Positions 2,489 through 22,267 are shown, counted from the stretch's first letter. The stretch: 55,135 nucleotides of DNA from an uncultured archaeon (GCA_964458565.1 CAYWJO010000020.1:1-55135), one strand, 5' to 3'. Made by a program: numbers and translations. The notes: a model not told the origin generated them from the sequence alone.

Positions 2489-5400
2489 GTGATTTCAATG
2501 AAGGAGTATCGGGATTCCTTGATTACAACTTGTTTTATCTTACTATTTCTCAGTAGTCTTTGTATTTCTGTATCCCCAAATAACACTCCTGGAAATGTAA
2601 CTAAAGACATTGTTGCTGAGCAATCTATTGTTCCTTTGATTGATTCATTTACATCCAGTGATACTTACTCAAGTCCTCTATATGGTGGTATTTCCTTTGA
2701 TATTACCATGGAGGATGGATATCTCGATGGTTACAATCTGTTCAATTTGCATGCAATCAATGCTAGCAGACGTGGTCAGCGTATTAACAACTCATTAGTC
2801 ATTTTTGATATGGAGGGAAACTTACTCCTTGAGAACTCCGTCTTCAATAAGCCTATTGAGTTGATAAACTCTACAACCGTTCTTGGAGATAGCTCAAGCG
2901 GTGCTGTGCTTTGGAATATGGAGACCGATGTATATCAATTTCTAGGTTTTAGAGGACACCATGAATATGAATACAATCCAAATGATAACACAATCTTCAC
3001 TCTTGAGCTAACTACCGAGGAGATTGGGGGTGCCATCTACCGTTTTGATAAAATCCAAGAGTACGCTCTCGATGGTACTCTAGTCTGGAGTCTAGATGTT
3101 CACGATTTCATCGACTACACGCAGTGGTGTCCATATCATGACCGTCAGAGTGGATTTAATGATGTCACTCATTGCAACACAGTTTTTTATGATGCTGATG
3201 AGGATACCATTCTCCTAAATGGACGCAATGTGAATACTTTCTATAAAATTGATCATTCGACAGGAGACGTGATTTGGGCACTTGGGGAGTATGGTGATTT
3301 CACATTGATAGATAGATTCGGTCGCCAAAAAACGAGCCTCTTCTATCACGCACACTCTGTCGAACAGATTGATGATAACAGGTACATTATTTTTGATAAT
3401 GACTTTCATAATCAAACAGACAATGGGAATCACAGGTCTCGCATCCTTGAGATTGAAATTGATGAGAATACAATGACTGCCACCGAGGCTTGGTCTTGGA
3501 CTGGTGATCTTAGCTATTATTCAGCCTGGTGGGGAGATGCTGATAGGTTAGCTAATGGTAACAGATTAGGTACGTTCGGAACCGAAACTAAGGATGTAGG
3601 TCCATATGGTGCTCGATTAGTTGAGGTTAACGAGGACGGTGATATTGTTTGGGAGATGTCTTTTGAAAACACTGAGGAATTTATCTATGGTGTATATCGA
3701 ATGGAACGGATCCGATTTTCTCCCTTACTCTCTTCACCACCCGATGTGTTAGTGAGCTATGGCTCTAGTCTTGACCTGTCATGGCAGACGTGGTATAACT
3801 TCAGGTCAAAGCGGACCATGTATGGCACATATGAGCTTTACATTGATGATTTCCTATCTGACAATGGACCTGTCGAGTTTGATAAATTCTGGCGGGCCAC
3901 GAACCTAAATTTCGGTTTCAGCGGACTCAGCGTAGGGGACCATAACATCACCCTACTCGTCAAGGACGAAGGCGGTCATGGCACTTCAGATACTGTCAAT
4001 GTAAGTGTGCGAACATTTCATATCGATAGAACTGGACCTTTAATCATTGAAACGAGTGTTTCTAATTCTATAATCACTTGGAGTGGTGTAAGTTCCTACT
4101 CTGTTTCCTATGAACTCTCTGTAAATGGTACTGTCATAGGTCAGGACATATGGGATAAGTCTGATATTCATCTGGACCTAAACACTCTATCAATAGGTCA
4201 CTATAACATAATATTGGAGTTCACAAACACAACTGGAATTGTATATAGTGATTCGTTTTGGGTTATTGTAAATCCTTCTGCAATACCGGTGTTTACGAGT
4301 GTGCCTGATGATACTAGCATCGACTGGAATACAACAACTACGATGAGCTGGTCGGTTTTTGACCATTCTCCATCAGAATGGTACCTATACCGAAATGGTA
4401 CAATAATTCTCTCTGGTACATGGAACGGTGGCACACATAACATAGATTGGCATGTATCAGGTGTTGATGAGGGTCTATATAATATTACAATGATTCTGCG
4501 GGATGTTGTGTCAAATACTAACTCCTCTACCTGCTGGTTGTATGTAATTCCTCCAAGCCCTCCTATATTGACGAAGGCTCCATACTCTGACACTATCGAG
4601 TGGGCTAAGAGCACCGTTCGATACAATTGGGAAGTTCATGGCGGAACCCATTGGATGCTATATAGGAATGGAACCATAATGAAGGAGGGGACTAAACGAG
4701 CACCTCAACTCACCCTTGAGATAATAAATTGGCAGGCAGATGGTTGGCGGTTAGGTGATTATAATATCACATTGGTTGTCAGTGATGAGTTGTATTCAAT
4801 CTCAAGTACTATCTGGCTTACAGTGTATGTTGACTTTGGTGATGCATATGTTGACGCAGTAGTTACAACTAGGTCTGCATGGTATTCGGATGGTGATAAT
4901 GCAGTAGGAGCACCAGATGGTGAGGTTGCGAGTCTATTCGAGGATTATGGTCCAGGATATATGACATTGGATATGGGTGAGAATGAAGAGATATTCGATG
5001 AAGAGGGAACTGATTTTGAGGTTATCGCGAATGGAGGTAATTATTCTATTTCAGTTTCTCCGGATTTGATTCAGCCATTCCTGGATTTAGGAGTGGTTTC
5101 AGGAAACCACAGTTTCGAATTATCATCGATTGAGTACAATAAAGTTAGATATGTGAAATTAGAGATATACAGTTCCGAAACGGTATTTCTCGATGCCATT
5201 GTAGCTCTTAACTACAATGAACAAGGATCCGACAATGATGCACCCATTATCAATCAACTGAATGACTTGGAGATATGGACTAATCAGACACCATATGAGA
5301 TAGAATGGACTGTTTCTGATCGGACTCCTTGGAATTATTCTATTTACCTTAATGGGACTCTGTCATATACTGCTCCTTGGGATGGATCTCCCATCGTGTA

Positions 5401-5635
5401 CTCATTTGATCCTCCCTCTCCAGGAGTATGGGAGGTCCATCTTGTGGTTGTTGATTTATTCGATAATACAGCAACTAATACTCTACTCATCACCTTGCAT
5501 CAGGTTCCTGGTATTGAACCATGGGTATTACTTGCAATTGGATCGGGCGTAGTTGGAGTAATTGCTTTGACCGCCTATCTATTTCATCGCAAGAAATCCG
5601 GATCCGATTCTGGAATACCGGTTGGTGAAGATTAG
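2489..5635 (+). CDS. Secreted, C-terminally membrane-anchored arylsulfotransferase (ASST)-like protein with Ig-like repeats and putative carbohydrate-binding module (paralog 1)
   Basis: N-terminal hydrophobic signal. ASST-type motifs GHHEYE, THCNT, NGRN, YHAHSV, IIFDN, GDADRL.NGN. Repeated G.YNIT...D..DTV.V modules. TM helix followed by RKK. Start may be ATG 2498. Confidence 0.8.
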   Translation: MISMKEYRDSLITTCFILLFLSSLCISVSPNNTPGNVTKDIVAEQSIVPLIDSFTSSDTYSSPLYGGISFDITMEDGYLDGYNLFNLHAINASRRGQRINNSLVIFDMEGNLLLENSVFNKPIELINSTTVLGDSSSGAVLWNMETDVYQFLGFRGHHEYEYNPNDNTIFTLELTTEEIGGAIYRFDKIQEYALDGTLVWSLDVHDFIDYTQWCPYHDRQSGFNDVTHCNTVFYDADEDTILLNGRNVNTFYKIDHSTGDVIWALGEYGDFTLIDRFGRQKTSLFYHAHSVEQIDDNRYIIFDNDFHNQTDNGNHRSRILEIEIDENTMTATEAWSWTGDLSYYSAWWGDADRLANGNRLGTFGTETKDVGPYGARLVEVNEDGDIVWEMSFENTEEFIYGVYRMERIRFSPLLSSPPDVLVSYGSSLDLSWQTWYNFRSKRTMYGTYELYIDDFLSDNGPVEFDKFWRATNLNFGFSGLSVGDHNITLLVKDEGGHGTSDTVNVSVRTFHIDRTGPLIIETSVSNSIITWSGVSSYSVSYELSVNGTVIGQDIWDKSDIHLDLNTLSIGHYNIILEFTNTTGIVYSDSFWVIVNPSAIPVFTSVPDDTSIDWNTTTTMSWSVFDHSPSEWYLYRNGTIILSGTWNGGTHNIDWHVSGVDEGLYNITMILRDVVSNTNSSTCWLYVIPPSPPILTKAPYSDTIEWAKSTVRYNWEVHGGTHWMLYRNGTIMKEGTKRAPQLTLEIINWQADGWRLGDYNITLVVSDELYSISSTIWLTVYVDFGDAYVDAVVTTRSAWYSDGDNAVGAPDGEVASLFEDYGPGYMTLDMGENEEIFDEEGTDFEVIANGGNYSISVSPDLIQPFLDLGVVSGNHSFELSSIEYNKVRYVKLEIYSSETVFLDAIVALNYNEQGSDNDAPIINQLNDLEIWTNQTPYEIEWTVSDRTPWNYSIYLNGTLSYTAPWDGSPIVYSFDPPSPGVWEVHLVVVDLFDNTATNTLLITLHQVPGIEPWVLLAIGSGVVGVIALTAYLFHRKKSGSDSGIPVGED

Positions 5636-7231
5636 ATGCATATTTCTAAGAACCAAGGAATTTTGGTTATACTTCTTCTACATTGCACTCTTTTTTCATC
5701 CATTCTTCCATTATTCACAGCAACTAATGATTTGTATGTGTTTAATCCATCGTCTGATTTCATTTCTGTTGAAAACTTAGTTCTACCAATCTATGAAGGT
5801 ATCACTGCTGAGTTAATCAATACGGACGAAGCCTTTGAAGGTTTAAACCTCATGTATATCTGGCGACTGAATGAAAGTGATCTCTTCAAACGAATGGAGA
5901 CCTCTCTCATAATTACTGATATGAGAGGAAATCTACTCCTTGAGGAACCAACCCTTGAGTCTCCCGCAGAATTCTATAATGCAACTACGATACTCTGTCA
6001 AAATCAAGACCAAGAATCTGTTCTTTGGAATATCGCAACTGGTAAGATACAACCTTTGGGATTCTTCAGTCATCATGATTTGGAAGCAAACTTTGAGAAT
6101 AATACAATATTCGCACTCGAAGAATACTATTTAGTATCAAAAGACTTTCCATATGCTTATGATGCGATATTGGAATATGACCTAGATGGAAATTTAGTGT
6201 GGCAATTGAACACATCTACCTTTGTTCACGGGTATCAGTGGTGTCCATTTCATGATTATAGAAGCAGTTTCATCCCAGATATCACACACTCTAACACAGT
6301 ATTTTATGATCCAAGTGAGGATGTTATATATCTCAATACTAGAAATCTGAACACATTCTACAAAATCGACCACAAGACTGGAGATATAATCTGGGCATTA
6401 GGAGAATATGGGGACTTTGATTTATACAGTATAACTGGTGATGAAAAGACAAATCTCTTCTATCATTCTCATGCTTTGGAATTAATTGATGAGAACACCT
6501 TCATTTTATTTGATAATGACTATCATAATCAAACGAATCCAGATAGTCTGAATTCACGTATACTTGAGATTGTGGTCAATGAATCCACTATGATGGCAAA
6601 TGTATCATGGGTATGGACCAGCCCACAAGAATATCATTCTATAATCTATGGTGATGCAGACCATCTGCCCAACGGAAATCGTCTTGGTGTTTTTGGTACT
6701 CACTGGAAACTGAATCCTGAATTAGGTGCAATTTTAGTTGAGGTCAATGATGAGGGGGATATTGTGTGGGAAATCAAATTCATTAATGAGAACAACATCG
6801 TTTATGGACTTTATAATATGGAACGGTTTAGATTTTCTCCAACCATTTCACAGGAACATGATACATTAGTAATCTCAGGAACTGACTCCTTCCTTACCTG
6901 GAATGCCTGGTATAATTATCGTGCAAAACACGATGTGACTGGACACTACGAAATCTTTGTTGATGATGTACTTTTTGAATCAAATTGCATCATATATGAT
7001 AGATATTGGCGTCCAGTGAATATCAGTTACAATACAAACTCATTATCCGTGGGAACCCATAATGTAACGGTATTGGTTTTTGATGAAATTGGCAATTCTG
7101 CATCTGATTCACTTGAGATTACTGTTGTACCATCCGGAATAATCGTTGACACCTCTTGGTTATTTGGAATTACTTTAGCTTGTAGTACTATTGGAATTGC
7201 AGCCATCCTGTATAGAAAGAAACAATTGTGA
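5636..7231 (+). CDS. ASST-like surface protein, short form: propeller + one Ig-like module + TM (paralog 2)
   Basis: SHHDLE, THSNT, NTRN, YHSHAL, LFDND, GDADHLPNGNRL. C-terminal TM + RKK. Abuts the upstream stop (TAG ATG). Confidence 0.8.
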   Translation: MHISKNQGILVILLLHCTLFSSILPLFTATNDLYVFNPSSDFISVENLVLPIYEGITAELINTDEAFEGLNLMYIWRLNESDLFKRMETSLIITDMRGNLLLEEPTLESPAEFYNATTILCQNQDQESVLWNIATGKIQPLGFFSHHDLEANFENNTIFALEEYYLVSKDFPYAYDAILEYDLDGNLVWQLNTSTFVHGYQWCPFHDYRSSFIPDITHSNTVFYDPSEDVIYLNTRNLNTFYKIDHKTGDIIWALGEYGDFDLYSITGDEKTNLFYHSHALELIDENTFILFDNDYHNQTNPDSLNSRILEIVVNESTMMANVSWVWTSPQEYHSIIYGDADHLPNGNRLGVFGTHWKLNPELGAILVEVNDEGDIVWEIKFINENNIVYGLYNMERFRFSPTISQEHDTLVISGTDSFLTWNAWYNYRAKHDVTGHYEIFVDDVLFESNCIIYDRYWRPVNISYNTNSLSVGTHNVTVLVFDEIGNSASDSLEITVVPSGIIVDTSWLFGITLACSTIGIAAILYRKKQL

Positions 7232-7298
7232 AATGACCTCATCTATGGAGTAGTATATAACGAAGCAATTCTACACCCATCCTGAAGAAAGCGCAATA

Positions 7299-8612
7299 TT
7301 GGTGGTTATCGAATTGGTGACAATAAGCGAGATTAAAGCGATTGAAATCCTTGATTCACGCGGCAATCCTACAATAATGACCAAGGTAATCCTCTCTGAT
7401 GGAACCTCTGGTGTTGCTCGTGTTCCAAGTGGTGCTTCTACCGGACTCCGTGAAGCGATGGAACTTAGAGATGGTGAAGCTCGGTATCTTGGTAAGGGTG
7501 TGAGGACCGCAATTGATAATGTTCACAAAGTACTAGCAAAAGGTCTGCTGTCTGTGGATCCTCTCTCTCAGGCTGAAGTTGATGCAGCTATGTTGAACAT
7601 GGACGGAACTGAAGGTAAAAAGAATCTTGGAGCAAATGCGATTCTTTCCGTATCTATGGCAACTGCTGTTGCAGCTGCAAATCATCTTGGTCTGGAACTA
7701 TTTGAATATCTTAGAACCAAGGTGATTGGAAAAGATGCACGATACCTCCAACCTGTGCCAATGTCCAATGTGATAAATGGCGGGGCACATGCTGGTAATA
7801 ATCTTGCAATTCAAGAATTCATGATTCTACCCATAGGAGCTAAGGACATTTTAGAAGCAGTTCAATGCATAAGCGAAGTCTATCATGTTCTTGGGAAACG
7901 ATTGATCAAAAACCATGGACGGATGAGTAAACACGTAGGAGACGAAGGCGGATTCTGTGGATACGGTCTGCAGACCTCTTACGATGCATTTGAAGAAATT
8001 GTGGCTGCTACAGAAGAGGCCGGTTATGCTTCTGGAAAAGATGTGGTTCTAGGAATAGACGCTGCTGCAAGTGGGTTTTACAAAGATGGTAAGTATAACT
8101 TAGATGGCAAGTCCCTTGATACAGGAGATTTGATTGATTATTATCTTGATATGGAAAAGACATTTCCATTGCAGTCTAACGAAGATCCCTTCGATGAGGA
8201 AGCATTTGAAGAATTTTCTGAATATACAAAGAAGACCAAAATACAGATTGTGACAGATGACCTAACAGTATCTCATCCACCTACAGTGAGAAAATGTATT
8301 GAAATGGGTGCAGGAAACGCTCTGCTTCTGAAGGTCAATCAGATTGGTTCAGTTACGGAAGCTATTGAAGCTGCAAAGACGGCTCAAGGTGCAGGTTGGC
8401 CGGTTGTCGTCAGTCACAGAAGTGGTGAGACCGGAGATACTTTCATCTCAGATCTTTCTGTTGCACTTGCATCAGGTCTGATAAAGACCGGAGCTCCTGC
8501 TCGTAGCGATCGTGTAGAGAAATACAATCGATTGATGGAGATATTTCACATTCTTGAAGGGGGATGCAGCTATCCTGGTTCTGGATTTCGCACTGCGTGG
8601 AGGGACTATTAA
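7299..8612 (+). CDS. eno: Enolase
   Basis: EILDSRGNPT, VPSGASTG..EA.ELRDG, NGGAHA, QEFMI, GDEGGF, LLKVNQIG, SHRSGET, IKTGAP.RS.R..KYN. True start probably a few codons downstream (~7314-7317). Confidence 0.97.
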   Translation: MVVIELVTISEIKAIEILDSRGNPTIMTKVILSDGTSGVARVPSGASTGLREAMELRDGEARYLGKGVRTAIDNVHKVLAKGLLSVDPLSQAEVDAAMLNMDGTEGKKNLGANAILSVSMATAVAAANHLGLELFEYLRTKVIGKDARYLQPVPMSNVINGGAHAGNNLAIQEFMILPIGAKDILEAVQCISEVYHVLGKRLIKNHGRMSKHVGDEGGFCGYGLQTSYDAFEEIVAATEEAGYASGKDVVLGIDAAASGFYKDGKYNLDGKSLDTGDLIDYYLDMEKTFPLQSNEDPFDEEAFEEFSEYTKKTKIQIVTDDLTVSHPPTVRKCIEMGAGNALLLKVNQIGSVTEAIEAAKTAQGAGWPVVVSHRSGETGDTFISDLSVALASGLIKTGAPARSDRVEKYNRLMEIFHILEGGCSYPGSGFRTAWRDY

Positions 8613-8615
8613 CCA

Positions 8616-9854
8616 ATGGAATCTAAGCGGACTGCTATTCTATTTATTATGGATGGACTTGGAGACCGTCCTGTCCCTGATTTGAATGGCAAGACGCCCT
8701 TGGAATTTGCGAATACTCCAACTTTCGATATGTTGGTATCCCAAGGGCAAAGCGGTCTTATGGATGTAATTGGACCTGGGATAACTCCTGGAAGCGATGC
8801 TGCTCATCTCGCATTGTTTGGATATGATCCATATGAAAACTATCCTGGCAGAGGTCCACTTGAGGCTCAGGGTGCTGGATTAAGTACAAAACCTGGTGAC
8901 GTGGCATTCCGTTCTAATTTCGCTACAGTAGACGAAAATTTCATTGTGCAAGACCGAAGAGCTGGGCGAGAAATATCTTCTGAGGAAGGTGAAATTCTTC
9001 AACACGCTCTGGATGGTCTTGAGATCGAGGATGTTCTCGTTCGATTCATCCATACTGTAGAGCATAGAGGCGCGTTAGTTCTTGAAGGCCCTGGTCTTTC
9101 TCCTCGGATCACAGATGTCGATCCGCATGAAACAGGAAAAAGAGTTTTGGAGTGTAAACCTGTAGTTCCTGAGGCTGAGAAGACTGCTAGAATTGTGAAC
9201 AAGCTGATTCAATTATCGAATGAAAAATGGAATGCCCTCGATATGAATAAGAAACGTATTGAGCGCGGACTTCCCCCAGCAAATGTCATTCTTCTTCGAG
9301 GTCAGGGTCAGCATATGGATTCCCCAACACTGTTTGAACGATATGGTATAAAATGTGCTGTTATTGCAGGAGGTGCTCTCTATATTGGTACAGCTAAATA
9401 CGTTGGTATGGAACACGTGTTGGTTGAGGGACAGACTGGAACGATTGACACAAACTTCGATAACATCGCCTCAAAGGTGATTGACAGCGTTGAAAATTAC
9501 GACTATATCTTTGTTCACATTAAAGCTACTGATAATGCCAGCCATGATCATGATGTAAACCAAAAGGTCTTGGCTATCGAGCGGTCTGATCAGATGATTG
9601 GAAAAATAATCGAAGCCGTTGGTGATAGGATAGTCATAGCTATATCTGGAGATCATTCAACTCCTGTGACCATAGGTGAACATACATGTGACCCTGTACC
9701 TATCATTCTATGGGGTACAAATATTCGTCCTGATAAGACAATTACATTCTGCGAACTTGAATCATCAATTGGTGGTCTTGGAACAATCCGAGGACATGAT
9801 GTTCTCCCTTTACTCTTAGGATATTCAGGCCAAATTGAAAAATTTGGTGCGTGA
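8616..9854 (+). CDS. apgM: 2,3-bisphosphoglycerate-independent phosphoglycerate mutase, archaeal type
   Basis: DGLGDRP...L.GKTPLE.A.TP, PGSD.AHL.LFGYDP, GRGPLEA.G, AFR.NF.T, HIK.TD.ASHD, GDHSTP, H..DPVP. Confidence 0.95.
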   Translation: MESKRTAILFIMDGLGDRPVPDLNGKTPLEFANTPTFDMLVSQGQSGLMDVIGPGITPGSDAAHLALFGYDPYENYPGRGPLEAQGAGLSTKPGDVAFRSNFATVDENFIVQDRRAGREISSEEGEILQHALDGLEIEDVLVRFIHTVEHRGALVLEGPGLSPRITDVDPHETGKRVLECKPVVPEAEKTARIVNKLIQLSNEKWNALDMNKKRIERGLPPANVILLRGQGQHMDSPTLFERYGIKCAVIAGGALYIGTAKYVGMEHVLVEGQTGTIDTNFDNIASKVIDSVENYDYIFVHIKATDNASHDHDVNQKVLAIERSDQMIGKIIEAVGDRIVIAISGDHSTPVTIGEHTCDPVPIILWGTNIRPDKTITFCELESSIGGLGTIRGHDVLPLLLGYSGQIEKFGA

Positions 9855-9968
9855 TAAAGGAGGTTCTATCATCAGTAACTCATTAGATTACTTGACTTAG
9901 AAAGCGACAATTATAAGTTACTTGTAGAAATCTCAATTGTGCTTAATCACAGACGTGATGTGTGACCC

Positions 9969-11801
9969 GTGCAGCCAAACAACAGAATCAAATCCGTTCT
10001 CCTAATCTTTATTTTAGTTCTAACACTTTATCCGATTCCTTTAGTTGCATCCGATTCTCATAAAATCTCTCAGGACTGGAATATTAACGCTGAAATCAAT
10101 GGCGCGCAGGTGCATATTTTGAAGGAAGAAGGTGCATTTGATGGCTACAATCTCTTCATGCTTCGAAAGACGAGTACGTCAACTACAGTTCGAGAATTCT
10201 ATTTGATGATTGTAGATATGGAAGGAAATGTGCTCTTAAATGAGCATATGGGTGACGGAATACTCCTTGCAGACTGTCCTGCTGAATTCATTGATCCAAA
10301 TACGATTCTCACCCGCAGACCTAGTGGTGCTATTCTCTATCACCTTGAGAATGGAAGTATAACAGATTTCAACTTTGCTGGGCATCATGAGTTTGAATAC
10401 AATCCTAATAGTGGAACATTCTTTACGTTCAATTATCAATATGTTGACATAAACGGGACATCTTATCTTTTTGACATGATTAAGGAGTTTGATCGTACTG
10501 GCTCTCTCGTTTGGTCTCTGGACACATCTACTTTCATCACTCCTGACCAATACTGTCCTTATTCAGATCGCTACATGAACAAACCAGATGTTACTCACTC
10601 CAACACTATTTTCTATGATCCGGAAGAGGATACAATTCTATACAACTCCCGCAATACAAACACTTTCTATCTGATTGACCATAACACAAGTGAGATACTT
10701 TGGGGGCTCGGTGAATTTGGTGATTTCACCTTAATTGATCAATATGGAAATCAGAAGGAAAATCTCTTCTACCACGCGCATGCAGTGGAACAAGTTGATG
10801 AGAATGTTTTCATTCTTTTTGATAACGACCTACACAATCAGACCTCTGAGATCAACTACACCTCTCGTATGCTTGAGATCACAATCGATGAAGACACAAT
10901 GACTGCTCATACATCTTGGGTCTGGTCTGCTCCCAGAGAATATTACTCATTCATTTGGGGTGATGCAGACAGGCTTCCTAATGGAAACCGGTTAGGGGTT
11001 TTTGGGCCTTGGTATCATTTTGATAGCAGTCCGTATGGCGGTCGTGTTGTCGAAGTGAATCCCGAGGGTGAGGTTGTATGGGAAATGACCTTTGAAAACA
11101 ATGCAAATTATAACTATGGTATCTATAAAATCGAACGATTCCGAAATTCACCAATCACAACTGAAACTGGTATGACTCATGGTCTCGTAGGCGAGAACAT
11201 CGTAGTTGATTGGGATGTTTTCTATAACTATCGTCCGAAAAGGACGATATCAGGTAGTTATGAACTCTATCTGGATGATGCATTATTTGAATCTGGGCAA
11301 TTGTCTTATGACAAATATTGGCGTCCATCCGAGCTAGAATTCGATCTTGGCATTATTGATCAGGGCTTACACAATGCTACACTCCTGTTTAATGAGCCAT
11401 CAGGTTCAAGAACAATCAGTACTATCTTTGTGAATATCTCACTATTCTATCTTGAATTTCAGGGACCACTTTCATTTGTTGTAGGAGACCCCAACAATCT
11501 AATTCGATGGACCGGTGATACTCTATTACCCTACCAATGCACAATATCCGTTGATGAGAATAACGTTTCATCATTCACTTGGAATGGATCTGATATAACA
11601 CTCGATGTAAGTACATATGGAGTTGGTAATCATTCTCTTCAGATTGAATTATTCAATGGAAGTGATCTTGTTTATTCAGCTTCGAATGAGTTTCAAATTG
11701 TTGGAGTTCCATTCTCAATACCTATTGAATTGATACTCCTTATTGCTACAGTATCGGGTGGAATAATCGTTATCTTCTTCATTTTCAAGAGGCGTAGATA
11801 A
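9969..11801 (+). CDS. ASST-like surface protein: propeller + two Ig-like modules + TM (paralog 3)
   Basis: Signal peptide. GHHEFE, THSNT, NSRN, YHAHAV, GDADRLPNGNRL. TM + KRRR. Confidence 0.8.
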   Translation: MQPNNRIKSVLLIFILVLTLYPIPLVASDSHKISQDWNINAEINGAQVHILKEEGAFDGYNLFMLRKTSTSTTVREFYLMIVDMEGNVLLNEHMGDGILLADCPAEFIDPNTILTRRPSGAILYHLENGSITDFNFAGHHEFEYNPNSGTFFTFNYQYVDINGTSYLFDMIKEFDRTGSLVWSLDTSTFITPDQYCPYSDRYMNKPDVTHSNTIFYDPEEDTILYNSRNTNTFYLIDHNTSEILWGLGEFGDFTLIDQYGNQKENLFYHAHAVEQVDENVFILFDNDLHNQTSEINYTSRMLEITIDEDTMTAHTSWVWSAPREYYSFIWGDADRLPNGNRLGVFGPWYHFDSSPYGGRVVEVNPEGEVVWEMTFENNANYNYGIYKIERFRNSPITTETGMTHGLVGENIVVDWDVFYNYRPKRTISGSYELYLDDALFESGQLSYDKYWRPSELEFDLGIIDQGLHNATLLFNEPSGSRTISTIFVNISLFYLEFQGPLSFVVGDPNNLIRWTGDTLLPYQCTISVDENNVSSFTWNGSDITLDVSTYGVGNHSLQIELFNGSDLVYSASNEFQIVGVPFSIPIELILLIATVSGGIIVIFFIFKRRR

Positions 11802-12848: not shown

Positions 12849-15800
12849 ATGCATAGAAAACTGATCGTTGCGGTTCTAATTTTACTCTTTACCATGCCAA
12901 TGGTTCCAAGTAGCGTTGAGTCAATTACAGATACATCTCAACCCCTTAACTATGAAACTAAAGTGCGTGACAGAGATGTTGACAATTTAACTCTCACAAC
13001 TGTTGATATCATGGGGGCAGATGTAGAGATATGGACTTCAGACCAAGCGTTTGAAGGATACAATCTCTTTGTCCTCAGAAAGAAAAATGTAGATGTTACT
13101 GGATACAATCAAACTCTACTACTTACTGACATGGAAGGGAATATTCTAATCGAAGAAAATGTTGTTGAAGGAATCTTTGAACTTGCTGATGTGAATTGTG
13201 AGATGATTAACTCTACAACTCTACTCATGGGGTATCAAGGTACTGCTGCACTCTGGAATCTTGAAACAGGACGGAAGAAATTCCTTGGTTTTTGGGGACA
13301 TCACGAATACGAGTACAATAATAATGATAACACCATTTTCACATTCAAGTACCATTCTGTTGAAATCGAAGGTAATCCCTATCTTATGGATGAAATCAGA
13401 GAATACGATCTTGATGGGAACATAGTTTGGTCTCTCGATGTTAGTGAGTTCATTTCACATGAATGGTATTGCCCTTATGAAGATCGTTTCATGAATCAGC
13501 CCGACATCACTCATTCCAACACACTCTTTTATGATGATGATGAGGACATGATTTACTATCATCCTAGAAACACGAATACATTTTTCAAAATCGACCATGC
13601 GACCGGAGATGTAATCTGGGGGCTTGGTGAGTATGGGGACTTCACACTTATTGACAGATATGGTCGAGTCACTAACGCTCTTTTCTATCATGGACATGCG
13701 CTTGAAAAGGTTGATGATAATACGTTCATTATCTTCGATAATGACCTGCACAATCAATCCAACCAGTTTAACTATCGTTCTCGAATGATTGAGATCACGA
13801 TTGATGAAGACACAATGACAGCTTATGAGAGCTGGACTTGGACTGGAGGCGACGATTACTGGTGTCATTTCTGGGGCGATGCAGACCGGCTTCCTAATGG
13901 GAACAGATTGGGGGTTTTTGGTGCTCCAACTCACGCTGCAGGTGATTATGGCGCGAGAGTGGTAGAAGTCAATGAAGCCGGTGAAATTGTATGGGAGATG
14001 AACTTTCGAGGATCTGATCAGTATAAGTGGGGGATTTACCGTTGTGACAGAATCAGGTTTGAACCATCTCTAATCTCTCCAGTAGATTCAATTGCATTAT
14101 TCAATGAAGAAATAGAGCTTACATGGCAAGCACTGTATAATTTTCGTAGTAAGCAATCACTTACTGGTTCTTACTGGGCATATGTGAATGGAAGTCTGGT
14201 GAGTACAGGGAATATAACCTATGACCGATTCTGGCGTCCCGTTGATGTTCCTGTAGCAATAGGTCAATGGTCTCCCGGTGTGTACAATGTCACACTAGTT
14301 GCTGCAGATGAAGGTGGGCATACAACATCTGATACCGTAATGATATCTGTAGTTCCCATTTACATGAATCGTGTGGGCTCTACACATCTTGAAGAGGGAC
14401 AAAACGAATATGTGATTACTTGGACTGGGGGAACTATTCATCCTCTTATATGCACTATTCTTGTTGATGGTGCTGAAACCACAACTTTTTCCTGGAATGG
14501 AGACGATATCAATCTCGATTTAGGTGCAATAGGTGTAGGTGAACATCAAGTACAACTAAGTCTTTACAACGATACTGTTGAGGTATATCTTGATGAATTC
14601 ACACTGAAAATATGTCCTAATGAGTTACCTGTTTTCTATTCTTCACCAATCATCAAATCATTTGCGTATGGTCGTGAGAAACAATTGATTTGGGGAGTCA
14701 ACGATTGCGCTCCAGCCTTTAGAGAGCTCTATGTTGATGGAAATATGATATCGAATGAAACCTGGGAGGTAGGTACTGTTAAGGTTGAGTGGACTCCTGT
14801 TGATCTGGATATTGGGGCGTACAATATCACTCTGGTCTTGATTGATATGGCGAACCACAGAGTATCTGACTCGGTCGTGCTCTTCATCACAGTCCCTTCG
14901 CCTCCAATGATTGTTTCCCGTCCTATTGTCGAACCAATTTTGTGGGGTACACCTGATGTTTCATTCAGTTGGGAAGTTAGAGGTGGTGGTCAATGGACTG
15001 TATATAAGAACTCAATACCCCTGTATGGTGGTCCTGTGATTGACACCACGATAGGTTTTACAATCCACGATTGGGGAGCGGAGTTGTGGAGTGTTGGCAC
15101 AAACGAAATCGTGCTAAAGGTCTACGATTCATTTGGATTTACTTCTGACACCTTGAGTGTTGAGGTCATACAGGACCCTGGGGATGCTTATGCAGATAGC
15201 ATTGTCACCTCTAGATCCACCTGGTATTCCAATGGTGATAATGCGATAGGTGAACCGGATGGCGTAACCGCTTCAATATTCATGGATTATGGACCTGGAT
15301 ACATGACACTAGATATGGGGTTGAATGAAGAGATTGTTAACGGTGTTGGTGACGATCTAATAATCTACTCTAATGGTGGGAATTATTCCCTCTCAATTCT
15401 TCAAACATTAACCAGTAATCCCATCTCAATTGGTGTATTCAGCGGAAATCATAGTATTGACCTAGATTCATTTGAGGTCAGTTTGGTTCGATATGTTCGA
15501 TTGGAATACTACAATGGAGACTGGGTCGAGCTAGATGCAATAGAGGCATTACATCACAATAATCCTTCAAGTGATCTCATAAATCCCCAGATTAGTGATG
15601 AACACAATCTCGTCCTTGATCCAGGTCTGAGAAGTGTCGTTCTTGAATGGACCGGCAGTGACGAGAATCCGCTTATCTATCAAGTTCTGCATAATGGTAC
15701 TATTATGAAATACGGCGCTTGGACTGGTGGTGCAGTTGAATATACCTTCAGACCAAAAGATATCGGCATCTGGAATGTAACTATGGTCTTTTTTGATGCT

Positions 15801-15953
15801 TTTGGTAACTCTGCGTACGACTCGGTGTTAGTTGAAGTGAGTTTCATTCCATCAGATACTCTGGAGGTCACCACACTCTTGCTCATTAGTGGTATCGGTA
15901 TCTCTGCGCTCATTATTGCGATTATATTCTGGTATAGGCGGAAATCTACATAG
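12849..15953 (+). CDS. ASST-like surface protein, long form (paralog 4)
   Basis: GHHEYE, THSNT, HPRN, YHGHAL, GDADRLPNGNRL. Same Ig/beta-sandwich/TM architecture as paralog 1. Confidence 0.8.
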   Translation: MHRKLIVAVLILLFTMPMVPSSVESITDTSQPLNYETKVRDRDVDNLTLTTVDIMGADVEIWTSDQAFEGYNLFVLRKKNVDVTGYNQTLLLTDMEGNILIEENVVEGIFELADVNCEMINSTTLLMGYQGTAALWNLETGRKKFLGFWGHHEYEYNNNDNTIFTFKYHSVEIEGNPYLMDEIREYDLDGNIVWSLDVSEFISHEWYCPYEDRFMNQPDITHSNTLFYDDDEDMIYYHPRNTNTFFKIDHATGDVIWGLGEYGDFTLIDRYGRVTNALFYHGHALEKVDDNTFIIFDNDLHNQSNQFNYRSRMIEITIDEDTMTAYESWTWTGGDDYWCHFWGDADRLPNGNRLGVFGAPTHAAGDYGARVVEVNEAGEIVWEMNFRGSDQYKWGIYRCDRIRFEPSLISPVDSIALFNEEIELTWQALYNFRSKQSLTGSYWAYVNGSLVSTGNITYDRFWRPVDVPVAIGQWSPGVYNVTLVAADEGGHTTSDTVMISVVPIYMNRVGSTHLEEGQNEYVITWTGGTIHPLICTILVDGAETTTFSWNGDDINLDLGAIGVGEHQVQLSLYNDTVEVYLDEFTLKICPNELPVFYSSPIIKSFAYGREKQLIWGVNDCAPAFRELYVDGNMISNETWEVGTVKVEWTPVDLDIGAYNITLVLIDMANHRVSDSVVLFITVPSPPMIVSRPIVEPILWGTPDVSFSWEVRGGGQWTVYKNSIPLYGGPVIDTTIGFTIHDWGAELWSVGTNEIVLKVYDSFGFTSDTLSVEVIQDPGDAYADSIVTSRSTWYSNGDNAIGEPDGVTASIFMDYGPGYMTLDMGLNEEIVNGVGDDLIIYSNGGNYSLSILQTLTSNPISIGVFSGNHSIDLDSFEVSLVRYVRLEYYNGDWVELDAIEALHHNNPSSDLINPQISDEHNLVLDPGLRSVVLEWTGSDENPLIYQVLHNGTIMKYGAWTGGAVEYTFRPKDIGIWNVTMVFFDAFGNSAYDSVLVEVSFIPSDTLEVTTLLLISGIGISALIIAIIFWYRRKST

Positions 15954-17637
15954 TTGTTAATTCAGGTTCAGGTGGATATGAGTATTCAGGGCTACTGTTA
16001 ATCCGTTTTCTATTTCTGAATTGCCAGATGAATAATATCGTTATTAGTACAATGAGCGTGATTGCACCATAATTTGCATACAATAGGGCATTTTGCTCAA
16101 CAGTGATTATAATATAATCTGTCATTTCGAGCCCTTCAGAATTTGATACTGTGACTGATATGTTGTGTGTACCAATCCCTAATCCTGTAAATCCTAGAAC
16201 TATGAAATTCTCTTGCCAATATGATTCCATAACAAACGGATAGGTGAATAGAACAGTATCCGCCTCTTCAATGGTAATGAGAGCGGTTGTCTCATACATT
16301 CGTCTAATATTATCCCATACTCGAAGATTAATTTCCATATCTGCACCATCGACGTAAGGCTCTGGGATTCCCATTACCCTGACAAATGGATGAACGTAAA
16401 ATCGTTCTATGTCCTCAATAGATATAGAATAAACATCGGAATCAAACTCGATCTCCCATGCGAGTCTGTCATTCTGAGTGAATTCTAGGAGAACTGGTCG
16501 ATCTTGTCTATTGAATGCAATAATTGTGTTTTCCAACGGGATTCTGCTCATGCTACCTGAAGACGCAAAGGAATTATCTGGCCCATTCAGAGATCGTACA
16601 ACTTGCGTGACGTTTCCTTCTTCATCAAGCACGAATTCGATGAATCTAGTAATTCCAATTCTTGGGTCTGAGGCAGTCAAGTTCCAATAATCTGTGTCGA
16701 TGCAGACAAATTGGTCAGGTCCCACTTTCTCACATGAATCCGGATGATAGAATATATTGTCCAACGATTCACCTACAAGATTGAATATTTCAAACTCGTT
16801 CTGATATCTTCCAATAATCCATTCAGTTTCCCCCGATGCGTAGTTGATTTTCACCACACAGTCTAGGTTTCTGACCGTGAGGTATATCATCGCATCTTCC
16901 ATATCCCATGAAATACTGTTAGCATGCATCCAGTCAATATCTGTAGGTGCTCCTTCAACAGTTTCTTCTCGTAAGAGATATTCACTTGCATTGAATGGGA
17001 ACGTCATATTACCGTCCCATCTCCAAAGCTCGGTACCCTCAAGATCATATTCAACAATGTCATTTCCAATTATTGTGTAGTCGGTTCCATTGTGCATATA
17101 ATTTCCAAAATTTGAACTCTCAATAACAAGGAAACTTTCCGTGTTCGGATTATATTCAATATCATTAGCCCCGCTCGGAACGGGAAGCACTTCTGTACCG
17201 TTCGTCATAATGTTCCAAATTGTGATAGTATCTGGTTCATCATTAGCAGTTAAAGCAACTGTAGTAGAATTAATCCATGTTGGATGTCCATATCCGTAAC
17301 CTTCTTTATACAATCCTGAGAAGACCTTTCCTTCCATATTCATAACTAACACAAAACCAAATGCAGGATTTGTAGTACCTGCATGATAATACTGAACTGG
17401 TACAAGATTGTATCCATCAGCTGCCCGATTTGGACTGTATTGGTTGACAAATATGGATTCTCTGACTACTTCGAATTCAGTTGAATTATAGGGTAATGCT
17501 TCGCCTACTTGGTATTGGTGGACTTCATTCATTTCACATGTCTTGATGCATTCATTACTCATCGGATAACACAAAGATGCAGCAAATGTCACAATCAAGA
17601 TTAAGGCGATGATTCTGTGTCCTCGCATTGTCTTCAC
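15946..17637 (-). CDS. Divergent ASST-like surface protein, probably catalytically inactive (paralog 5)
   Basis: Retains DIEYNP, IVEYD..G...W.W, WMHANS, VRNLD, W.IG, but has GAND in place of GHHE and YHPDS in place of YHxH. Signal peptide, one Ig-like module, TM and a ~20-aa tail. Confidence 0.7.
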   Translation of the reverse strand: MKTMRGHRIIALILIVTFAASLCYPMSNECIKTCEMNEVHQYQVGEALPYNSTEFEVVRESIFVNQYSPNRAADGYNLVPVQYYHAGTTNPAFGFVLVMNMEGKVFSGLYKEGYGYGHPTWINSTTVALTANDEPDTITIWNIMTNGTEVLPVPSGANDIEYNPNTESFLVIESSNFGNYMHNGTDYTIIGNDIVEYDLEGTELWRWDGNMTFPFNASEYLLREETVEGAPTDIDWMHANSISWDMEDAMIYLTVRNLDCVVKINYASGETEWIIGRYQNEFEIFNLVGESLDNIFYHPDSCEKVGPDQFVCIDTDYWNLTASDPRIGITRFIEFVLDEEGNVTQVVRSLNGPDNSFASSGSMSRIPLENTIIAFNRQDRPVLLEFTQNDRLAWEIEFDSDVYSISIEDIERFYVHPFVRVMGIPEPYVDGADMEINLRVWDNIRRMYETTALITIEEADTVLFTYPFVMESYWQENFIVLGFTGLGIGTHNISVTVSNSEGLEMTDYIIITVEQNALLYANYGAITLIVLITILFIWQFRNRKRINSSPEYSYPPEPELTTM

Positions 17638-17708: not shown

Positions 17709-19061
17709 CTAAGTCTGTCTCTTAATACCCACTTTTCCAACGCAACGATACTCAAAACCTCTTGAAACTAAATCGTTGGCATCAAATACGTTACGACCAT
17801 CTACAATCACAGGAGTACGCATTACCTTGACAATTCTGTCTAAATCCATTTCGAAGTATTCGTTATGTTTTGTAACTAGCGCCAGACAGTCCGAGTCTTT
17901 TGCTGCTTCAATGATATCACGTTGGATTTCATGAGGTGTAAATTCCCATGTCTGTACAAATGGATCGTGAATACGTACTTGCGCACCTTTTGACATCAGA
18001 GCAGCTATCAACGTCGCAGCGGGCGAATTTCTGGTGTCATCACTATTTTCAAGATATGCCACACCAAGGACTGTGACGATTGAATCCTGAATTGAAACTT
18101 CCTTGAATTGCAGTGCATTTTGGATTAGATCGGTCATATGAACCGGCATATGATTATTGATTCTTCTCGCTAGTGAAATGAATTCAGGTTCTATTTTCCA
18201 CGTTCCGTATTCATATAAACCGTATCTGAGGAGCCACGGATCCTTTGGAAGACAGTGTCCACCAACACCCGCTCCTGGGATGTGCATATGCCTGTCATGT
18301 CTTGCGTTTATCAACTTGATAATCTCATAGATATTAACACCAAGACTTTCAGAAACCAATGCCATTTCATTTGCGAATGCGATATTCACATCCCGATAGG
18401 CATTCTCGATTGTCTTTGATAGTTCTGCGGTGAGGGTATCTGTTGTGTAAATCTCTTCTTTCACAATCGTTGCATATAGGTCATATGCTCTCTTGGTAGC
18501 TTCTGCGGTGATTCCTCCGACAACTCTTGGCATATTCGCAATGAATTCAAGAAGTCTTCCCGGCATAACACGCTCATATGAGAATGCAAGATCAAAGTCC
18601 TCTCCGCCTACTAAACCGGATTCCTTTTCGATGATTGTCTTTACAACATTTTCTGTTGTTCCTGGGGCAACTGTTGATTCTACAATAACCAATGCACCCT
18701 TTTTGAGTTTTTTACCAATATTTGCACTTACTTCTCTCAGGGATTGATACTGTGGCATGTTCTGTGCATCAGTTGGTGTCTGAACATCAATAAGGATGAT
18801 ATCAGCATCTGCTAATACTTCTATATCATCTGTCACTACAAAGGTGCCCTTCTTTACTACTCGCGATATGAGCTCCTCGAGACCTGGTTCTACTCCCTCA
18901 AATGGTGATTTCCCATTGTTCAGTGCGTCAATTTTCCAACCAGACCTCTTTGATTTTCTCTGGAGCCCTGTAACATGATGTCCTTCAACATCTGCGAGCA
19001 ATGCTGCAGCAGGGATGCCAACATAGCCCATACCAACAACAACTATCTCTGTTGTCATCAT
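17709..19061 (-). CDS. Nucleotide-sugar dehydrogenase (UDP-ManNAc/UDP-GlcNAc 6-dehydrogenase, WecC/WbpA-like)
   Basis: GMGYVG, V.TP, VESTV.PGTT, ERV.PG, K..EN.YRDVNIAFANE, PG.GVGGHCLPKDP, D.RNSP, DGRN. Confidence 0.93.
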   Translation of the reverse strand: MMTTEIVVVGMGYVGIPAAALLADVEGHHVTGLQRKSKRSGWKIDALNNGKSPFEGVEPGLEELISRVVKKGTFVVTDDIEVLADADIILIDVQTPTDAQNMPQYQSLREVSANIGKKLKKGALVIVESTVAPGTTENVVKTIIEKESGLVGGEDFDLAFSYERVMPGRLLEFIANMPRVVGGITAEATKRAYDLYATIVKEEIYTTDTLTAELSKTIENAYRDVNIAFANEMALVSESLGVNIYEIIKLINARHDRHMHIPGAGVGGHCLPKDPWLLRYGLYEYGTWKIEPEFISLARRINNHMPVHMTDLIQNALQFKEVSIQDSIVTVLGVAYLENSDDTRNSPAATLIAALMSKGAQVRIHDPFVQTWEFTPHEIQRDIIEAAKDSDCLALVTKHNEYFEMDLDRIVKVMRTPVIVDGRNVFDANDLVSRGFEYRCVGKVGIKRQT

Positions 19062-19216: not shown

Positions 19217-22200
19217 TTGCCTTCAAGAAACTACTCTCTACTTGTATTCGTACTTCTGATAGTTACTTCACAATTAATTATCGGATTAGATGAGTTGGTT
19301 TTATATGAAGACACACAGAAAGCACCAAACTCTCGATACCCATTGAGTAATTTGGATCCATACACTGTGAATTTAGAGGTTCCAATCAATAGCGATGATG
19401 CTTTCGACGGGTACACAATGTTCACGCTAAGTCAATCAAGTTCTAGCGGAACGAATAACTCCCTAGTGATTGTTGATATGAATGGTGAGGTTGTCCGAGA
19501 CTTGTATATCGGTGATTTAGTTGCGTTCTATTCGATGGCTGAATTTGTAGATCCCTATACGATCTTAGTTGGTGCTCGCGAGGGTCCCGGTTTCTGGAAT
19601 ATAGTTAATGATACCTGGGAGCATGTACCTAGACGTGGTCACCACGAATATGAATACAATCCTAACTCCGATACGATATTCATGCTCCAGCATATTAAGG
19701 TTGATATTGAAGGCACGAATTATCTCTATGATACAATAGAAGAAGTTGACCGAAACGGTACTGTTGTATGGTCTTTGAACACCACTGATTTTATCTCTCC
19801 CTCTTGGTGGTATACTGGTGAAATAGCTGGTGGGGCTCCAGATGTGACCCATTCAAACACCATTTTCTATGATGCTGATGAAGACGCGTTCCTGTATAAC
19901 TCTCGAAACACTAACACTTTCTTTAAGATCAATCATACAAATGGTGAGGTAATCTGGGCATTAGGGGAGTTTGGTGATTTTACCCTCCTTGATGGACTCG
20001 GTCAACCTAAACGGAGTTTATTTTGGCATGCGCATTCAGTCGAAAAATTGGGTGAGAATAAATTTATTATATTCGATAATGATTACTATGATCAAGTTGA
20101 TCCAGGAAACAAAAATTCTCGTATTGTGGAGATAACAATCAACCAGACATCAATGACTGCGCAGGAAACCTGGTCGTATGCTGCATCCAGCAGTCATTGG
20201 ACTGCGGGTTGGGGTGATGCGGATAGGCTTCCAAATGGAAACCGGCTTGGAACCTTTGGTTATTGGAGTGCGGGTATTCCTGCAATCATTGAAGTAAGTC
20301 CATCTGGGAGTATTGTGTGGGAATTGGATTTTCCAAAGGAGGATGGTGCCATATATGGCACATATCGTTCTGAGAGAATTCGTTTTAATCCTATAATCAA
20401 TCATCCAGATGATATTCTAGTGCCAGCCCAAGAAAACTTCTCAATTCCATGGAAGACCTGGTATAATTACCGAACGAAACAATACCTTCCTGGTAGTTAC
20501 TCACTTTATCTTAATGACGAAGTGATTCAGTCTGGTGTCTTCGACTTTAACAAATTCTGGCAAGATACAGAATTAACAATGAACATTGATGCACTTCCTG
20601 TTGGACAATATAATCTCACGCTTGCAGTTTACAATGACGTGGGACAGAGAATTACCGATACAGTCAATGTTGATGTCGGTTCCCTTTTCATTACAAGGTC
20701 AGGACCTGAAGAAATTGAATATGGCCAGATGAATTCTACCATCCGCTGGTCTGGATTCACAACTGAATCTGTAAACCTCAATCTTACAATCAATGGGGTT
20801 CCGATAAGATTCGAGCCATGGAATGGCACTGATATATTATTGGATTTGAATTCGCTCGAAATCGGTTCTCATCATATCATCCTACAGATATCTAATGCTA
20901 CAGCAGTACTTCATGTTGATGATTTTTGGGCCAATATCTATGATGCTGAACCTCCGATAGTTTTCACATCGAACACAGAATTTGTTATCGAATGGGATGA
21001 ACCATGTCATCTATATTGGGATATTTTCGATATGACACCAATGAACTGGATGGTTTCAATTAATGGTGTTTTTGTTCAATCAAATTCATGGATTGATAAA
21101 AACACGACAGTAGATTGGTTAGTTCCAACTCTTAGCGAGGGTGTTTACTATATTACACTTACAGCTTTTGATTGGGCTGGTTTTCAATCCAATTCTACGG
21201 TCAGACTGATTGTTTTAGAACCTGACAATCCAATTATCGCATCCACTCCATATCCTGATGTCATTGAATGGGGTACTGAGAGCTTTAAGCTTGAATGGGA
21301 AGTGCATGGTGCGTCAGAATGGGTATTATTGAAGGATGGAGTCCTATTCCAATCTGGACTCATGGATTCAGTCTTCATTTCAGTATCAATTGATTCGTGG
21401 AGCAATAGGGCATGGATTCCAGGTGTGTATAATCTAACACTTGTTGTATCGAATTTGGAAGGAAATGAGGATTGTGCAATTACCTTTTTGCGTATCGTAT
21501 TGAATCTGGGTGATCCGTATGCAGACACTCTAATCACAAGCTGGTCTGGTTGGTATTATGATGGTAACAACTCGATTGGTCCCCCAGATGGTATGTTCAC
21601 TACAATCTATGTGGAATACGGAAATGGGTATGTTACTCTAGATATGGGACAAGGCGAAGAGATACTCAATAATCCTGGGGTTGACTTCTCGATTATTGCT
21701 CGAGGAGGCGATTATCAATTATCTGTGGCTACGAATCTTGACAGTAATTTCGAAATTATGGGTGTCTTTAGTGGAAACACTAGCTTTGAGTTGTCAGAGG
21801 TTGATCTTGAATCTGCTCGATATGTTCGGATAACCTATTTTGATGGAGCTTTTATTGAGTTGGATGCAGTTGTTGCATTCTCGTACAATCTCCCCACAAC
21901 CGAGAGTATTATTCCACTAGTAGTAGGTCCAAATGACTACACAATGGAAAGTGGAACCACTTTGATTCTCAATTGGACTGCATACGACCTAGCTCCCTGG
22001 AACTACTCCATCTATGTCAACGGAGTGAAGACTATAACAGGAGTATGGGCGGTTGGTAATATCACTTACATATTCTGTCCCGAATCCGGAGGAATTTGGA
22101 ATATCACAATTGTAGTGTCCGATTTATTCGGGAATTGTGCCGCTGATACTGTCTTGGTGGATGTAAGAGAACGAACATCTCCCCTAGTTGTGTATCCTAT

Positions 22201-22267
22201 TGCATTTTCAATCGTTACTCTTTGTACATTGCTAGTAATTTTATCCAACAGGTATAAACCAACATAA
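19217..22267 (+). CDS. ASST-like surface protein, long form (paralog 6)
   Basis: GHHEYE, THSNT, NSRN, WHAHSV, GDADRLPNGNRL. Ig repeats, shared beta-sandwich block, C-terminal TM. TTG start. Confidence 0.8.
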   Translation: MPSRNYSLLVFVLLIVTSQLIIGLDELVLYEDTQKAPNSRYPLSNLDPYTVNLEVPINSDDAFDGYTMFTLSQSSSSGTNNSLVIVDMNGEVVRDLYIGDLVAFYSMAEFVDPYTILVGAREGPGFWNIVNDTWEHVPRRGHHEYEYNPNSDTIFMLQHIKVDIEGTNYLYDTIEEVDRNGTVVWSLNTTDFISPSWWYTGEIAGGAPDVTHSNTIFYDADEDAFLYNSRNTNTFFKINHTNGEVIWALGEFGDFTLLDGLGQPKRSLFWHAHSVEKLGENKFIIFDNDYYDQVDPGNKNSRIVEITINQTSMTAQETWSYAASSSHWTAGWGDADRLPNGNRLGTFGYWSAGIPAIIEVSPSGSIVWELDFPKEDGAIYGTYRSERIRFNPIINHPDDILVPAQENFSIPWKTWYNYRTKQYLPGSYSLYLNDEVIQSGVFDFNKFWQDTELTMNIDALPVGQYNLTLAVYNDVGQRITDTVNVDVGSLFITRSGPEEIEYGQMNSTIRWSGFTTESVNLNLTINGVPIRFEPWNGTDILLDLNSLEIGSHHIILQISNATAVLHVDDFWANIYDAEPPIVFTSNTEFVIEWDEPCHLYWDIFDMTPMNWMVSINGVFVQSNSWIDKNTTVDWLVPTLSEGVYYITLTAFDWAGFQSNSTVRLIVLEPDNPIIASTPYPDVIEWGTESFKLEWEVHGASEWVLLKDGVLFQSGLMDSVFISVSIDSWSNRAWIPGVYNLTLVVSNLEGNEDCAITFLRIVLNLGDPYADTLITSWSGWYYDGNNSIGPPDGMFTTIYVEYGNGYVTLDMGQGEEILNNPGVDFSIIARGGDYQLSVATNLDSNFEIMGVFSGNTSFELSEVDLESARYVRITYFDGAFIELDAVVAFSYNLPTTESIIPLVVGPNDYTMESGTTLILNWTAYDLAPWNYSIYVNGVKTITGVWAVGNITYIFCPESGGIWNITIVVSDLFGNCAADTVLVDVRERTSPLVVYPIAFSIVTLCTLLVILSNRYKPT

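Follow-up and report, generated by a model that had tools for sequence, protein, structure and literature searches.

Arylsulfotransferases (ASSTs) serve as biocatalysts, and little is known of their donors, acceptors and roles in nature (PMC13426309). In the Escherichia coli enzyme, His436 is transiently sulfated, with His252, His356, Asn358, Arg374 and Thr501 around it (PMC13426309). A two-step sulfation has been described for caprazamycin, in which a polyketide pyrone is sulfated from 3′-phosphoadenosine-5′-phosphosulfate (PAPS) by Cpz8 and then acts as donor for the ASST-type enzyme Cpz4 (PMC4257720), which sulfates a sugar hydroxyl (PMC13426309). Here we analysed a 55,135-nucleotide stretch of DNA (hereafter the window), which is contig C20 of a Thor-type Asgard genome bin of 3.73 Mb (completeness 93%, contamination 5%), and in which an array spanning positions 2489-22267 holds six ASST-family genes, numbered ASST1 to ASST6 by map order. 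Their sequences and a structure model make it highly likely that five of them encode tethered, catalytically competent ASST-family enzymes, for which sulfation outside the cell appears to be the most likely role. Many of these Asgard proteins already bear the name aryl-sulfate sulfotransferase at NCBI, and a literature search found no paper on them in archaea.

Fold, active site and anchoring of the array proteins

All six open reading frames (ORFs) scored above the 24.2-bit cut-off of Pfam family PF05935 (Arylsulfotrans), with 55-89 bits, in agreement with an earlier note on this DNA that had read them as six paralogs. Those of its proposed checks that were carried out here all spoke for its reading. 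The fold was examined on ASST3, the only ASST copy modelled, using a family alignment of 117 diverse members. The resulting AlphaFold model (predicted local distance difference test, pLDDT, 93.4; predicted TM-score 0.86) was a six-bladed propeller, and its ten best Foldseek matches in the PDB were all Cpz4 or E. coli ASST. With VIA-align, the model matched Cpz4 at Z 35.1 (9kf4) and at Z 34.6 and 2.6 Å over 323 residues (9kf6). Superposition on E. coli ASST (3elq), which the earlier note had proposed as a check, indicated an ASST-type propeller at Z 31.6 and 3.2 Å over 342 residues, as against Z 21 for the best unrelated propeller, TolB. The ASST genes, with the immunoglobulin (Ig)-like domains, carbohydrate-binding module (CBM)-like domains and transmembrane (TM) segments of their products and the proposed catalytic residues (ASST3 numbering), are as follows.

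2489-5635, plus strand: ASST1, long form, 1048 aa (1045 aa in the database version, which starts at the ATG at 2498); PF05935 E 6e-24; catalytic H, H, N, R and H kept; N-terminal hydrophobic segment, propeller at aa 49-417, Ig-like region at aa 415-774, CBM-like domain at aa 782-914, Ig-like domain at aa 916-1007, TM segment at aa 1008-1033, then a basic tail
5636-7231, plus strand: ASST2, short form, 531 aa; PF05935 E 3e-19; propeller, one Ig-like domain, TM segment, tail RKKQL
9969-11801, plus strand: ASST3, mid form, 610 aa; PF05935 E 4e-25; helix at aa 4-20, propeller at about aa 35-395, two Ig-like domains at aa 400-580, TM helix at aa 586-609, tail KRRR
10386-10781, plus strand: span of the five proposed catalytic residues of ASST3
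10386-10388, plus strand: H140 of ASST3, proposed equivalent of His252
10596-10604, plus strand: H210 and N212 of ASST3, equivalents of His356 and Asn358
10650-10652, plus strand: R228 of ASST3, equivalent of Arg374
10779-10781, plus strand: H271 of ASST3, equivalent of the sulfated His436
12849-15953, plus strand: ASST4, long form, 1034 aa, architecture like that of ASST1; PF05935 E 5e-18
15946-17637, minus strand: ASST5, diverged short form, 563 aa; PF05935 E 6e-15
19217-22267, plus strand: ASST6, long form, 1016 aa; PF05935 E 5e-25, also passing PF14269

The earlier note had further claimed that five copies keep the motifs HH(E/D), H(S/C)N, RN and HxH, and that these match the E. coli active site in order. 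The motifs were recovered in the alignment, the second of them as TH(S/C)N. Using the CFT073 gene from its RefSeq record as the E. coli reference, the order was confirmed for His356, Asn358, Arg374 and His436 by profile search, hhalign and hidden Markov model (HMM) alignment, and less firmly for His252. Specifically, THSN and RN of a 40-sequence Asgard profile aligned residue by residue with His356, Asn358 and Arg374 of 3elq, and the equivalents of these three residues were present in all six copies. The equivalent of His436 was the second His of HxH, which fell on precursor His463 (hhalign 95% probability; also in the HMM alignment) and with which the catalytic His of Cpz4 likewise aligned; it was present in five copies and replaced by Asp in ASST5. 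For His252, both hhalign and full-length local alignment mis-registered the first catalytic blade, and searches of E. coli ASST with short profiles of the HH and HxH blocks yielded nothing usable. An alignment restricted to this blade paired HHExEYNPNSGT with THESIETPNGT, which makes H140 the probable equivalent of His252.

H140, H210, N212, R228 and H271 were each kept in at least 90% of the 117-sequence alignment. The catalytic positions were also read in a set of 46 ASST ORFs drawn from the present genome and 12 loci in other Asgard genomes; 45 of the 46 kept all of the five residues that they cover. The exception was ASST5, with the motifs AN, HAN, RN and HPD, in which H140 was changed to N, H271 to D and the conserved GDAD to GSxS, while H210, N212 and R228 were kept. 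Judged from these replacements, ASST5 is probably catalytically dead, and because both histidines are retained by the copies nearest to it, which belong to another genome, it would be a recently inactivated but intact copy. In a paralog from another Asgard genome (G003:C24; L005:9763-11394), an in-frame TGA was found in place of a conserved glycine codon; it is probably a nonsense mutation or a sequencing error, and a reading as selenocysteine was rejected.

This conservation bears on two other readings of the proteins. They might be mainly structural or adhesive surface components (an S-layer-like coat, or lectins), with the propeller as scaffold and sulfotransfer vestigial. Such a role would suit the ten copies with long Ig-like stalks in the genome, the persistence of ASST5 without its nucleophile, the existence of a stalk-only gene in the array, the recurrence of the terminal Ig-TM module in other proteins of the genome, and the presence of an archaeal surface-layer propeller-PKD protein (1l0q) among the fold matches. 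However, the 1l0q match was weak (TM-score 0.29) next to the ASST matches, and a purely structural role is unlikely because 45 of 46 copies conserve the catalytic set although overall identity across the Asgard lineages is only 25-55%; we regard a mainly structural function as improbable. The fold and its histidine nucleophile could also have been turned to another group transfer or hydrolysis, for instance of phosphate or sulfonate esters, given that identity to characterised ASSTs was 17-21% and that the equivalent of Thr501 is replaced. Against this stand the exact retention of the His/His/Asn/Arg set that binds the sulfuryl group and genomic ties of the family to sulfate activation rather than phosphate metabolism (see below), so that this option seems very improbable.

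The architecture proposed in the earlier note, an N-terminal segment, propeller, Ig-like stalk and C-terminal TM segment with basic tail shared by all copies, agreed with the hydrophobic segments and with a domain map made using home-made domain profiles. Each of the six proteins has one N-terminal hydrophobic segment, which may or may not be cleaved, and one C-terminal hydrophobic segment, the latter followed by K/R residues, and these segments at both ends suggest membrane-anchored, outward-facing proteins. N-glycosylation sequons occurred at 1.4-2.2 per 100 residues in the ASST copies, versus 0.7 in the neighbouring UPF0182 protein. No PGF motif of the kind that marks PGF-CTERM proteins anchored by archaeosortase was found before the C-terminal helix in the C-termini examined, and no exosortase-family match (PF09721) was found in the genome by a search that also missed the Haloferax control. 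The last stalk module (Ig-like domain, membrane helix and basic tail) also ends other proteins of this genome, on contigs C21, C23, C15, C10, C24, C72, C36, C6 and C12; the archaeon may use it as a general cassette for surface anchoring.

The domain profiles distinguished three stalk architectures in the array. In the short forms (ASST2 and ASST5), a single Ig-like domain joins the propeller to the anchor; the mid form (ASST3) has two such domains, and the long forms (ASST1, ASST4 and ASST6) carry about four Ig-like domains, a CBM-like jelly roll and a last Ig-like domain before the anchor. One further gene encodes a stalk only.

11830-12798, plus strand: stalk-only gene, 322 aa, without propeller

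Pfam and NCBIfam searches gave no match for its product, which shared 34-38% identity with the C-terminal ~270 aa of the long forms. This protein has its own N-terminal hydrophobic segment, a jelly roll at aa 63-193, an Ig/PKD-like domain at aa 195-284, a TM segment at aa 295-320 and the tail RKRSP. In its model (pLDDT 84), the jelly roll matched CBM32, F-type lectin, discoidin and similar sugar-binding modules at VIA Z 9-12, with 110-125 residues aligned at 2.6-3.2 Å. ASST3 and this gene, which follows it, together resemble a long form divided into two proteins, each with its own anchor; in the propeller tree, ASST3 nests among the long forms.

Sulfate activation genes and a candidate sulfuryl donor

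Of the two roles that the earlier note had proposed for the array, sulfation of the cell's own surface and scavenging of environmental sulfates, the former was favoured by genomic links to PAPS synthesis, PAPS-type sulfotransferase and type III polyketide synthase (PKS) genes. Contig C35 of the genome carries a cluster encoding an alpha/beta hydrolase, a PAPS-type sulfotransferase, a CysQ-like phosphatase, adenosine 5′-phosphosulfate (APS) kinase (CysC), a phosphodiesterase-family protein and ATP sulfurylase (Sat), together with three TauE/SafE transporters. The sulfotransferase (C35:1601-2734) matched PF13469/PF00685, contains the motif ARAGTT and is without a hydrophobic segment. This contig begins with an SCP2-domain ORF cut by the contig edge, whose final 18 residues are identical to the opening 18 of an ASST ORF truncated at the end of contig C6. 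Because of this 18-residue overlap, C35:1-583 (L022) and C6:115305-116891 (L023) form one gene and the two contigs are neighbours. The joined gene encodes a doubly anchored SCP2-ASST fusion of about 705 residues, the intact form of which was found in another genome (G133:C15), and the join thereby links an SCP2-ASST to the cluster of Sat, CysC, sulfotransferase and TauE genes.

This linkage recurred elsewhere in the comparison sample of 201 Asgard genomes, many of which are incomplete bins. A sulfotransferase of ~385 residues adjoined SCP2-ASST at 11 places in 10 other genomes from three Asgard families, and in three genomes (G151:C32, G160:C127 and G196:C70) genes for CysQ-like proteins and Sat-CysC fusions had a long ASST of the window type directly upstream. 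Type III PKS genes, of which the genome studied here has one (C30:1119-2234), were found in 12 of the 201 genomes, and all 12 were ASST-positive (hypergeometric P 7e-8, a value that ignores kinship and thus overstates the significance). Within genus g9, the three PKS-positive genomes were exactly the three with SCP2-ASST. A full cluster was found on G151:C102, where a short ASST, an unknown gene, a type III PKS, an SCP2-ASST and a sulfotransferase follow one another; on G086:C70, which has a partial one, a PKS is divergent from a long ASST. The window's own genome thus encodes all three enzyme types of the caprazamycin scheme, namely a type III PKS, a PAPS-type sulfotransferase and ASSTs (ten), with sulfotransferase, SCP2-ASST, Sat and CysC clustered, and the PKS and the window array on other contigs. 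As a separate observation, the sulfotransferase/SCP2-ASST pair of G133:C15 (L021:5605-8342) lies ~2 kb from genes for a polysaccharide pyruvyl transferase and a Wzx-like polysaccharide flippase.

These links suggest the following scheme. The five copies with an intact catalytic set would act by ping-pong: the histidine would first take the sulfuryl group from a donor sulfate ester and then hand it on to a hydroxyl of the acceptor. A phenolic or pyrone sulfate made by the cell would most likely be the donor, and the gene set would offer a means of carrying it to the outer face. There, the array proteins, held in the membrane by the C-terminal helix with its basic tail, would most likely sulfate sugars of the cell's own surface glycans or exopolysaccharide, and each of the diverged paralogs might serve a different acceptor or position. 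A glycan acceptor is proposed because of the CBM-like module, the nucleotide-sugar neighbours of the array and the precedent of Cpz4.

Scavenging or re-shuffling of aryl or glycan sulfates from sediment organic matter, in which the sulfuryl group would be passed to other acceptors or to water, so as to unlock substrates or free sulfate, with no donor made by the cell, is a live rival to this scheme. A genome search found no formylglycine sulfatase (PF00884), a result also counted in favour of surface sulfation, the many diverged paralogs would fit a broad substrate range, the CBM-like domain could hold a polysaccharide, and a gene for a peptide/oligosaccharide-type binding protein and one for a sugar kinase are present in the window near the array. 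Moreover, some ASST-type enzymes were first described as arylsulfatases (PMC13426309), and several ASST-positive genomes appear to be without APS kinase or SCP2-ASST. Nevertheless, the repeated physical links of window-type and SCP2-type copies to anabolic genes (PAPS synthesis, PAPS-type sulfotransferase and type III PKS) speak against scavenging, and no sulfate or sulfated-sugar uptake genes adjoin the array; we consider it unlikely.

Several observations weigh against surface sulfation from a cell-made donor, or against parts of the assignment on which it builds. The window array itself is not beside PAPS or PKS genes, its neighbours being glycolysis and nucleotide-sugar genes, and the only gene order that it shares with another genome, enolase-phosphoglycerate mutase-ASST-UDP-glucose dehydrogenase, is shared with a relative of the same family. 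With the queries used, SCP2-ASST was not found in twelve genomes of family f5 that have ASST arrays, nor APS kinase in some ASST-positive genomes; in a sample with many incomplete bins, this suggests that the link to sulfate activation is not obligate. The co-occurrence counts ignore kinship. At the active site, the blade-restricted alignment for His252 scored 36.5 against 11.9 +/- 5.8 for shuffled sequences (~4 standard deviations), with the best shuffle reaching 36.0, and Thr501 is not kept, falling on a variable position (I/W/F/G) just before the GDAD motif; as Thr501 is listed for E. coli ASST only, it was not treated as family-defining. Finally, the stalk domain is CBM-like at the fold level only.

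On balance, an outward-facing battery of tethered ASSTs that draws on a donor made by the cell and acts on surface acceptors is the best overall explanation, and we hold it to be probable, if by no wide measure. For its two specific parts, a self-made donor and a glycan acceptor, the chances appear close to even. A fuller version, a shuttle in which a polyketide phenol, sulfated from PAPS in the cytoplasm, would reach the outer face on the SCP2 domain, perhaps aided by TauE exporters, and in which tethered ASSTs would use it to sulfate the surface glycans of Asgard archaea, with the paralogs writing different sulfation patterns, is put forward tentatively, as a possibility that may well not hold.

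Composition and history of the array

The genome holds ten PF05935 genes, six in the window and four on other contigs, the highest count among the 201 sampled Asgard genomes. Matches to this family were found in 55 of these genomes with a patchy distribution (14 of 43 in the archaeon's own family, 18 of 21 in family f5). Propeller identity was 40-58% among the five copies with an intact catalytic set, and 24-28% between ASST5 and the others.

In a FastTree phylogeny of the propellers, ASST1, ASST3 and ASST4 fell in one clade with a copy from contig C10 (support 0.95), ASST6 was sister to a copy on contig C58 (0.99), ASST5 grouped with copies of another genome (0.99) in the same deep clade as SCP2-ASST, and ASST2 lay among short forms of other lineages. 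Because of these placements, the array is best read as a mix of old paralogs and lineage-specific duplicates. A relative of the same family (G037:C23) shows the window order with two copies only: enolase, cofactor-independent phosphoglycerate mutase (iPGM), ASST, UDP-glucose 6-dehydrogenase (UGDH) on the minus strand, and a long ASST. The local expansion that the earlier note had claimed is thus borne out by this syntenic two-copy site and by the genome-specific clade of ASST1, ASST3 and ASST4, and does not extend to ASST2, ASST5 and ASST6, which are older paralogs. In other lineages, separate tandem arrays consist of three to six short forms and have no glycolysis or UGDH neighbours. Particular to the window are the largest array in the sampled genomes, its three architectures, the dead copy (as ASST5 appears to be), the split stalk-only gene and the two-copy state at the syntenic site in the relative.

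Between the ASST copies lie genes for enolase, iPGM and UGDH, the last of which was identified by Pfam.

17709-19061, minus strand: UGDH, between ASST copies

The array is flanked by a pyruvate kinase gene and two NAD-dependent sugar epimerase/dehydratase genes. The stop codon of ASST1 directly abuts the start of ASST2 at the next base, and the 3′ ends of ASST5 and ASST4 overlap by 8 bases. Positions 2489-15953 comprise eight same-strand genes with gaps of 0-114 bases, in which ASST genes are mixed with those for enolase and phosphoglycerate mutase. A functional link to glycolysis was rejected, since enolase and iPGM share array and strand only here and in G037:C23 and not in the arrays of other lineages. 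NCBIfam models matched none of the proteins.

Directly after the array, the ORF at 22399-25410 was considered as a further paralog and rejected, being UPF0182; it encodes a 1003-aa multi-pass protein with a coiled-coil stretch that weakly matches a CdvA-like domain. Elsewhere in the window, a 776-aa ORF (38641-40971, minus strand) without Pfam match at E 1e-5 lies beside V-type ATPase subunit genes. Positions 48777-52458 hold adjoining genes for a BshC-like protein (48777-50492, minus strand), a GT4 glycosyltransferase (50505-51674, minus strand) and a PIG-L-family deacetylase (51760-52458, plus strand), an enzyme set of the bacillithiol-type thiol synthesis kind that is unexpected in an Asgard archaeon.

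Comparison with known sulfation systems

Eukaryotes transport PAPS into the Golgi for sulfation. In their closest prokaryotic relatives, the ASST family is now seen as a large set of proteins, predicted to be surface-anchored, with stalks and a sugar-binding-like module, accompanied by genes for a plausible self-made donor. These expressible proteins, together with a defined three-enzyme scheme, offer a way to ask how a cell without periplasm or Golgi sulfates molecules outside its membrane, and they bear on whether Asgard archaea have sulfated surface glycans. If the shuttle proposed above were true, it would be a prokaryotic answer to the problem that eukaryotes solve by PAPS transport into the Golgi, and it would give a large uncharacterised ASST branch its first natural role.

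With E. coli CFT073 ASST/AssT (PDB 3ELQ, 3ETS, 3ETT, 4P04-07), the Asgard proteins share the six-bladed propeller, the equivalents of His356, Asn358, Arg374 and His436 and probably that of His252, and, as their hydrophobic segments suggest, a location outside the cytoplasm. The E. coli enzyme is a soluble dimer that depends on DsbL/DsbI and carries an N-terminal beta-sandwich domain (PMC13426309). This sandwich has no counterpart here, as the aligned range begins at chain residue 113-116; conversely, E. coli ASST is without stalk, CBM-like domain or membrane anchor, and its Thr501 is not kept in the Asgard copies.

Within the Asgard archaea, the closest comparison is the SCP2-ASST fusion, with one such gene in this genome, which has a propeller of the same family and the same double anchoring. 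Unlike this fusion, the window's six ASSTs lack an SCP2 domain, and no sulfotransferase gene adjoins them; they give the impression of extra transferases, not of the member that handles the carrier.

Among described enzymes, Cpz4 of Streptomyces sp. MK730-62F2 (PDB 9KF4, 9KF6), which works with the PAPS-dependent Cpz8 and the type III PKS Cpz6, gave the strongest sequence match of any solved structure (profile E 1e-13) and also the strongest match in fold. The parallel extends to the genes for type III PKS and PAPS-type sulfotransferase, which in the Asgard archaea are clustered with ASSTs on G151:C102. Cpz4 is a 472-residue enzyme of an antibiotic pathway, and its deposited chain is without membrane-anchor or stalk domains. 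In contrast, the Asgard proteins, at ~20% identity to it, are carried on Ig-like stalks, are predicted to be tethered outside the cell, occur in up to ten copies per genome and have no antibiotic pathway near their genes.

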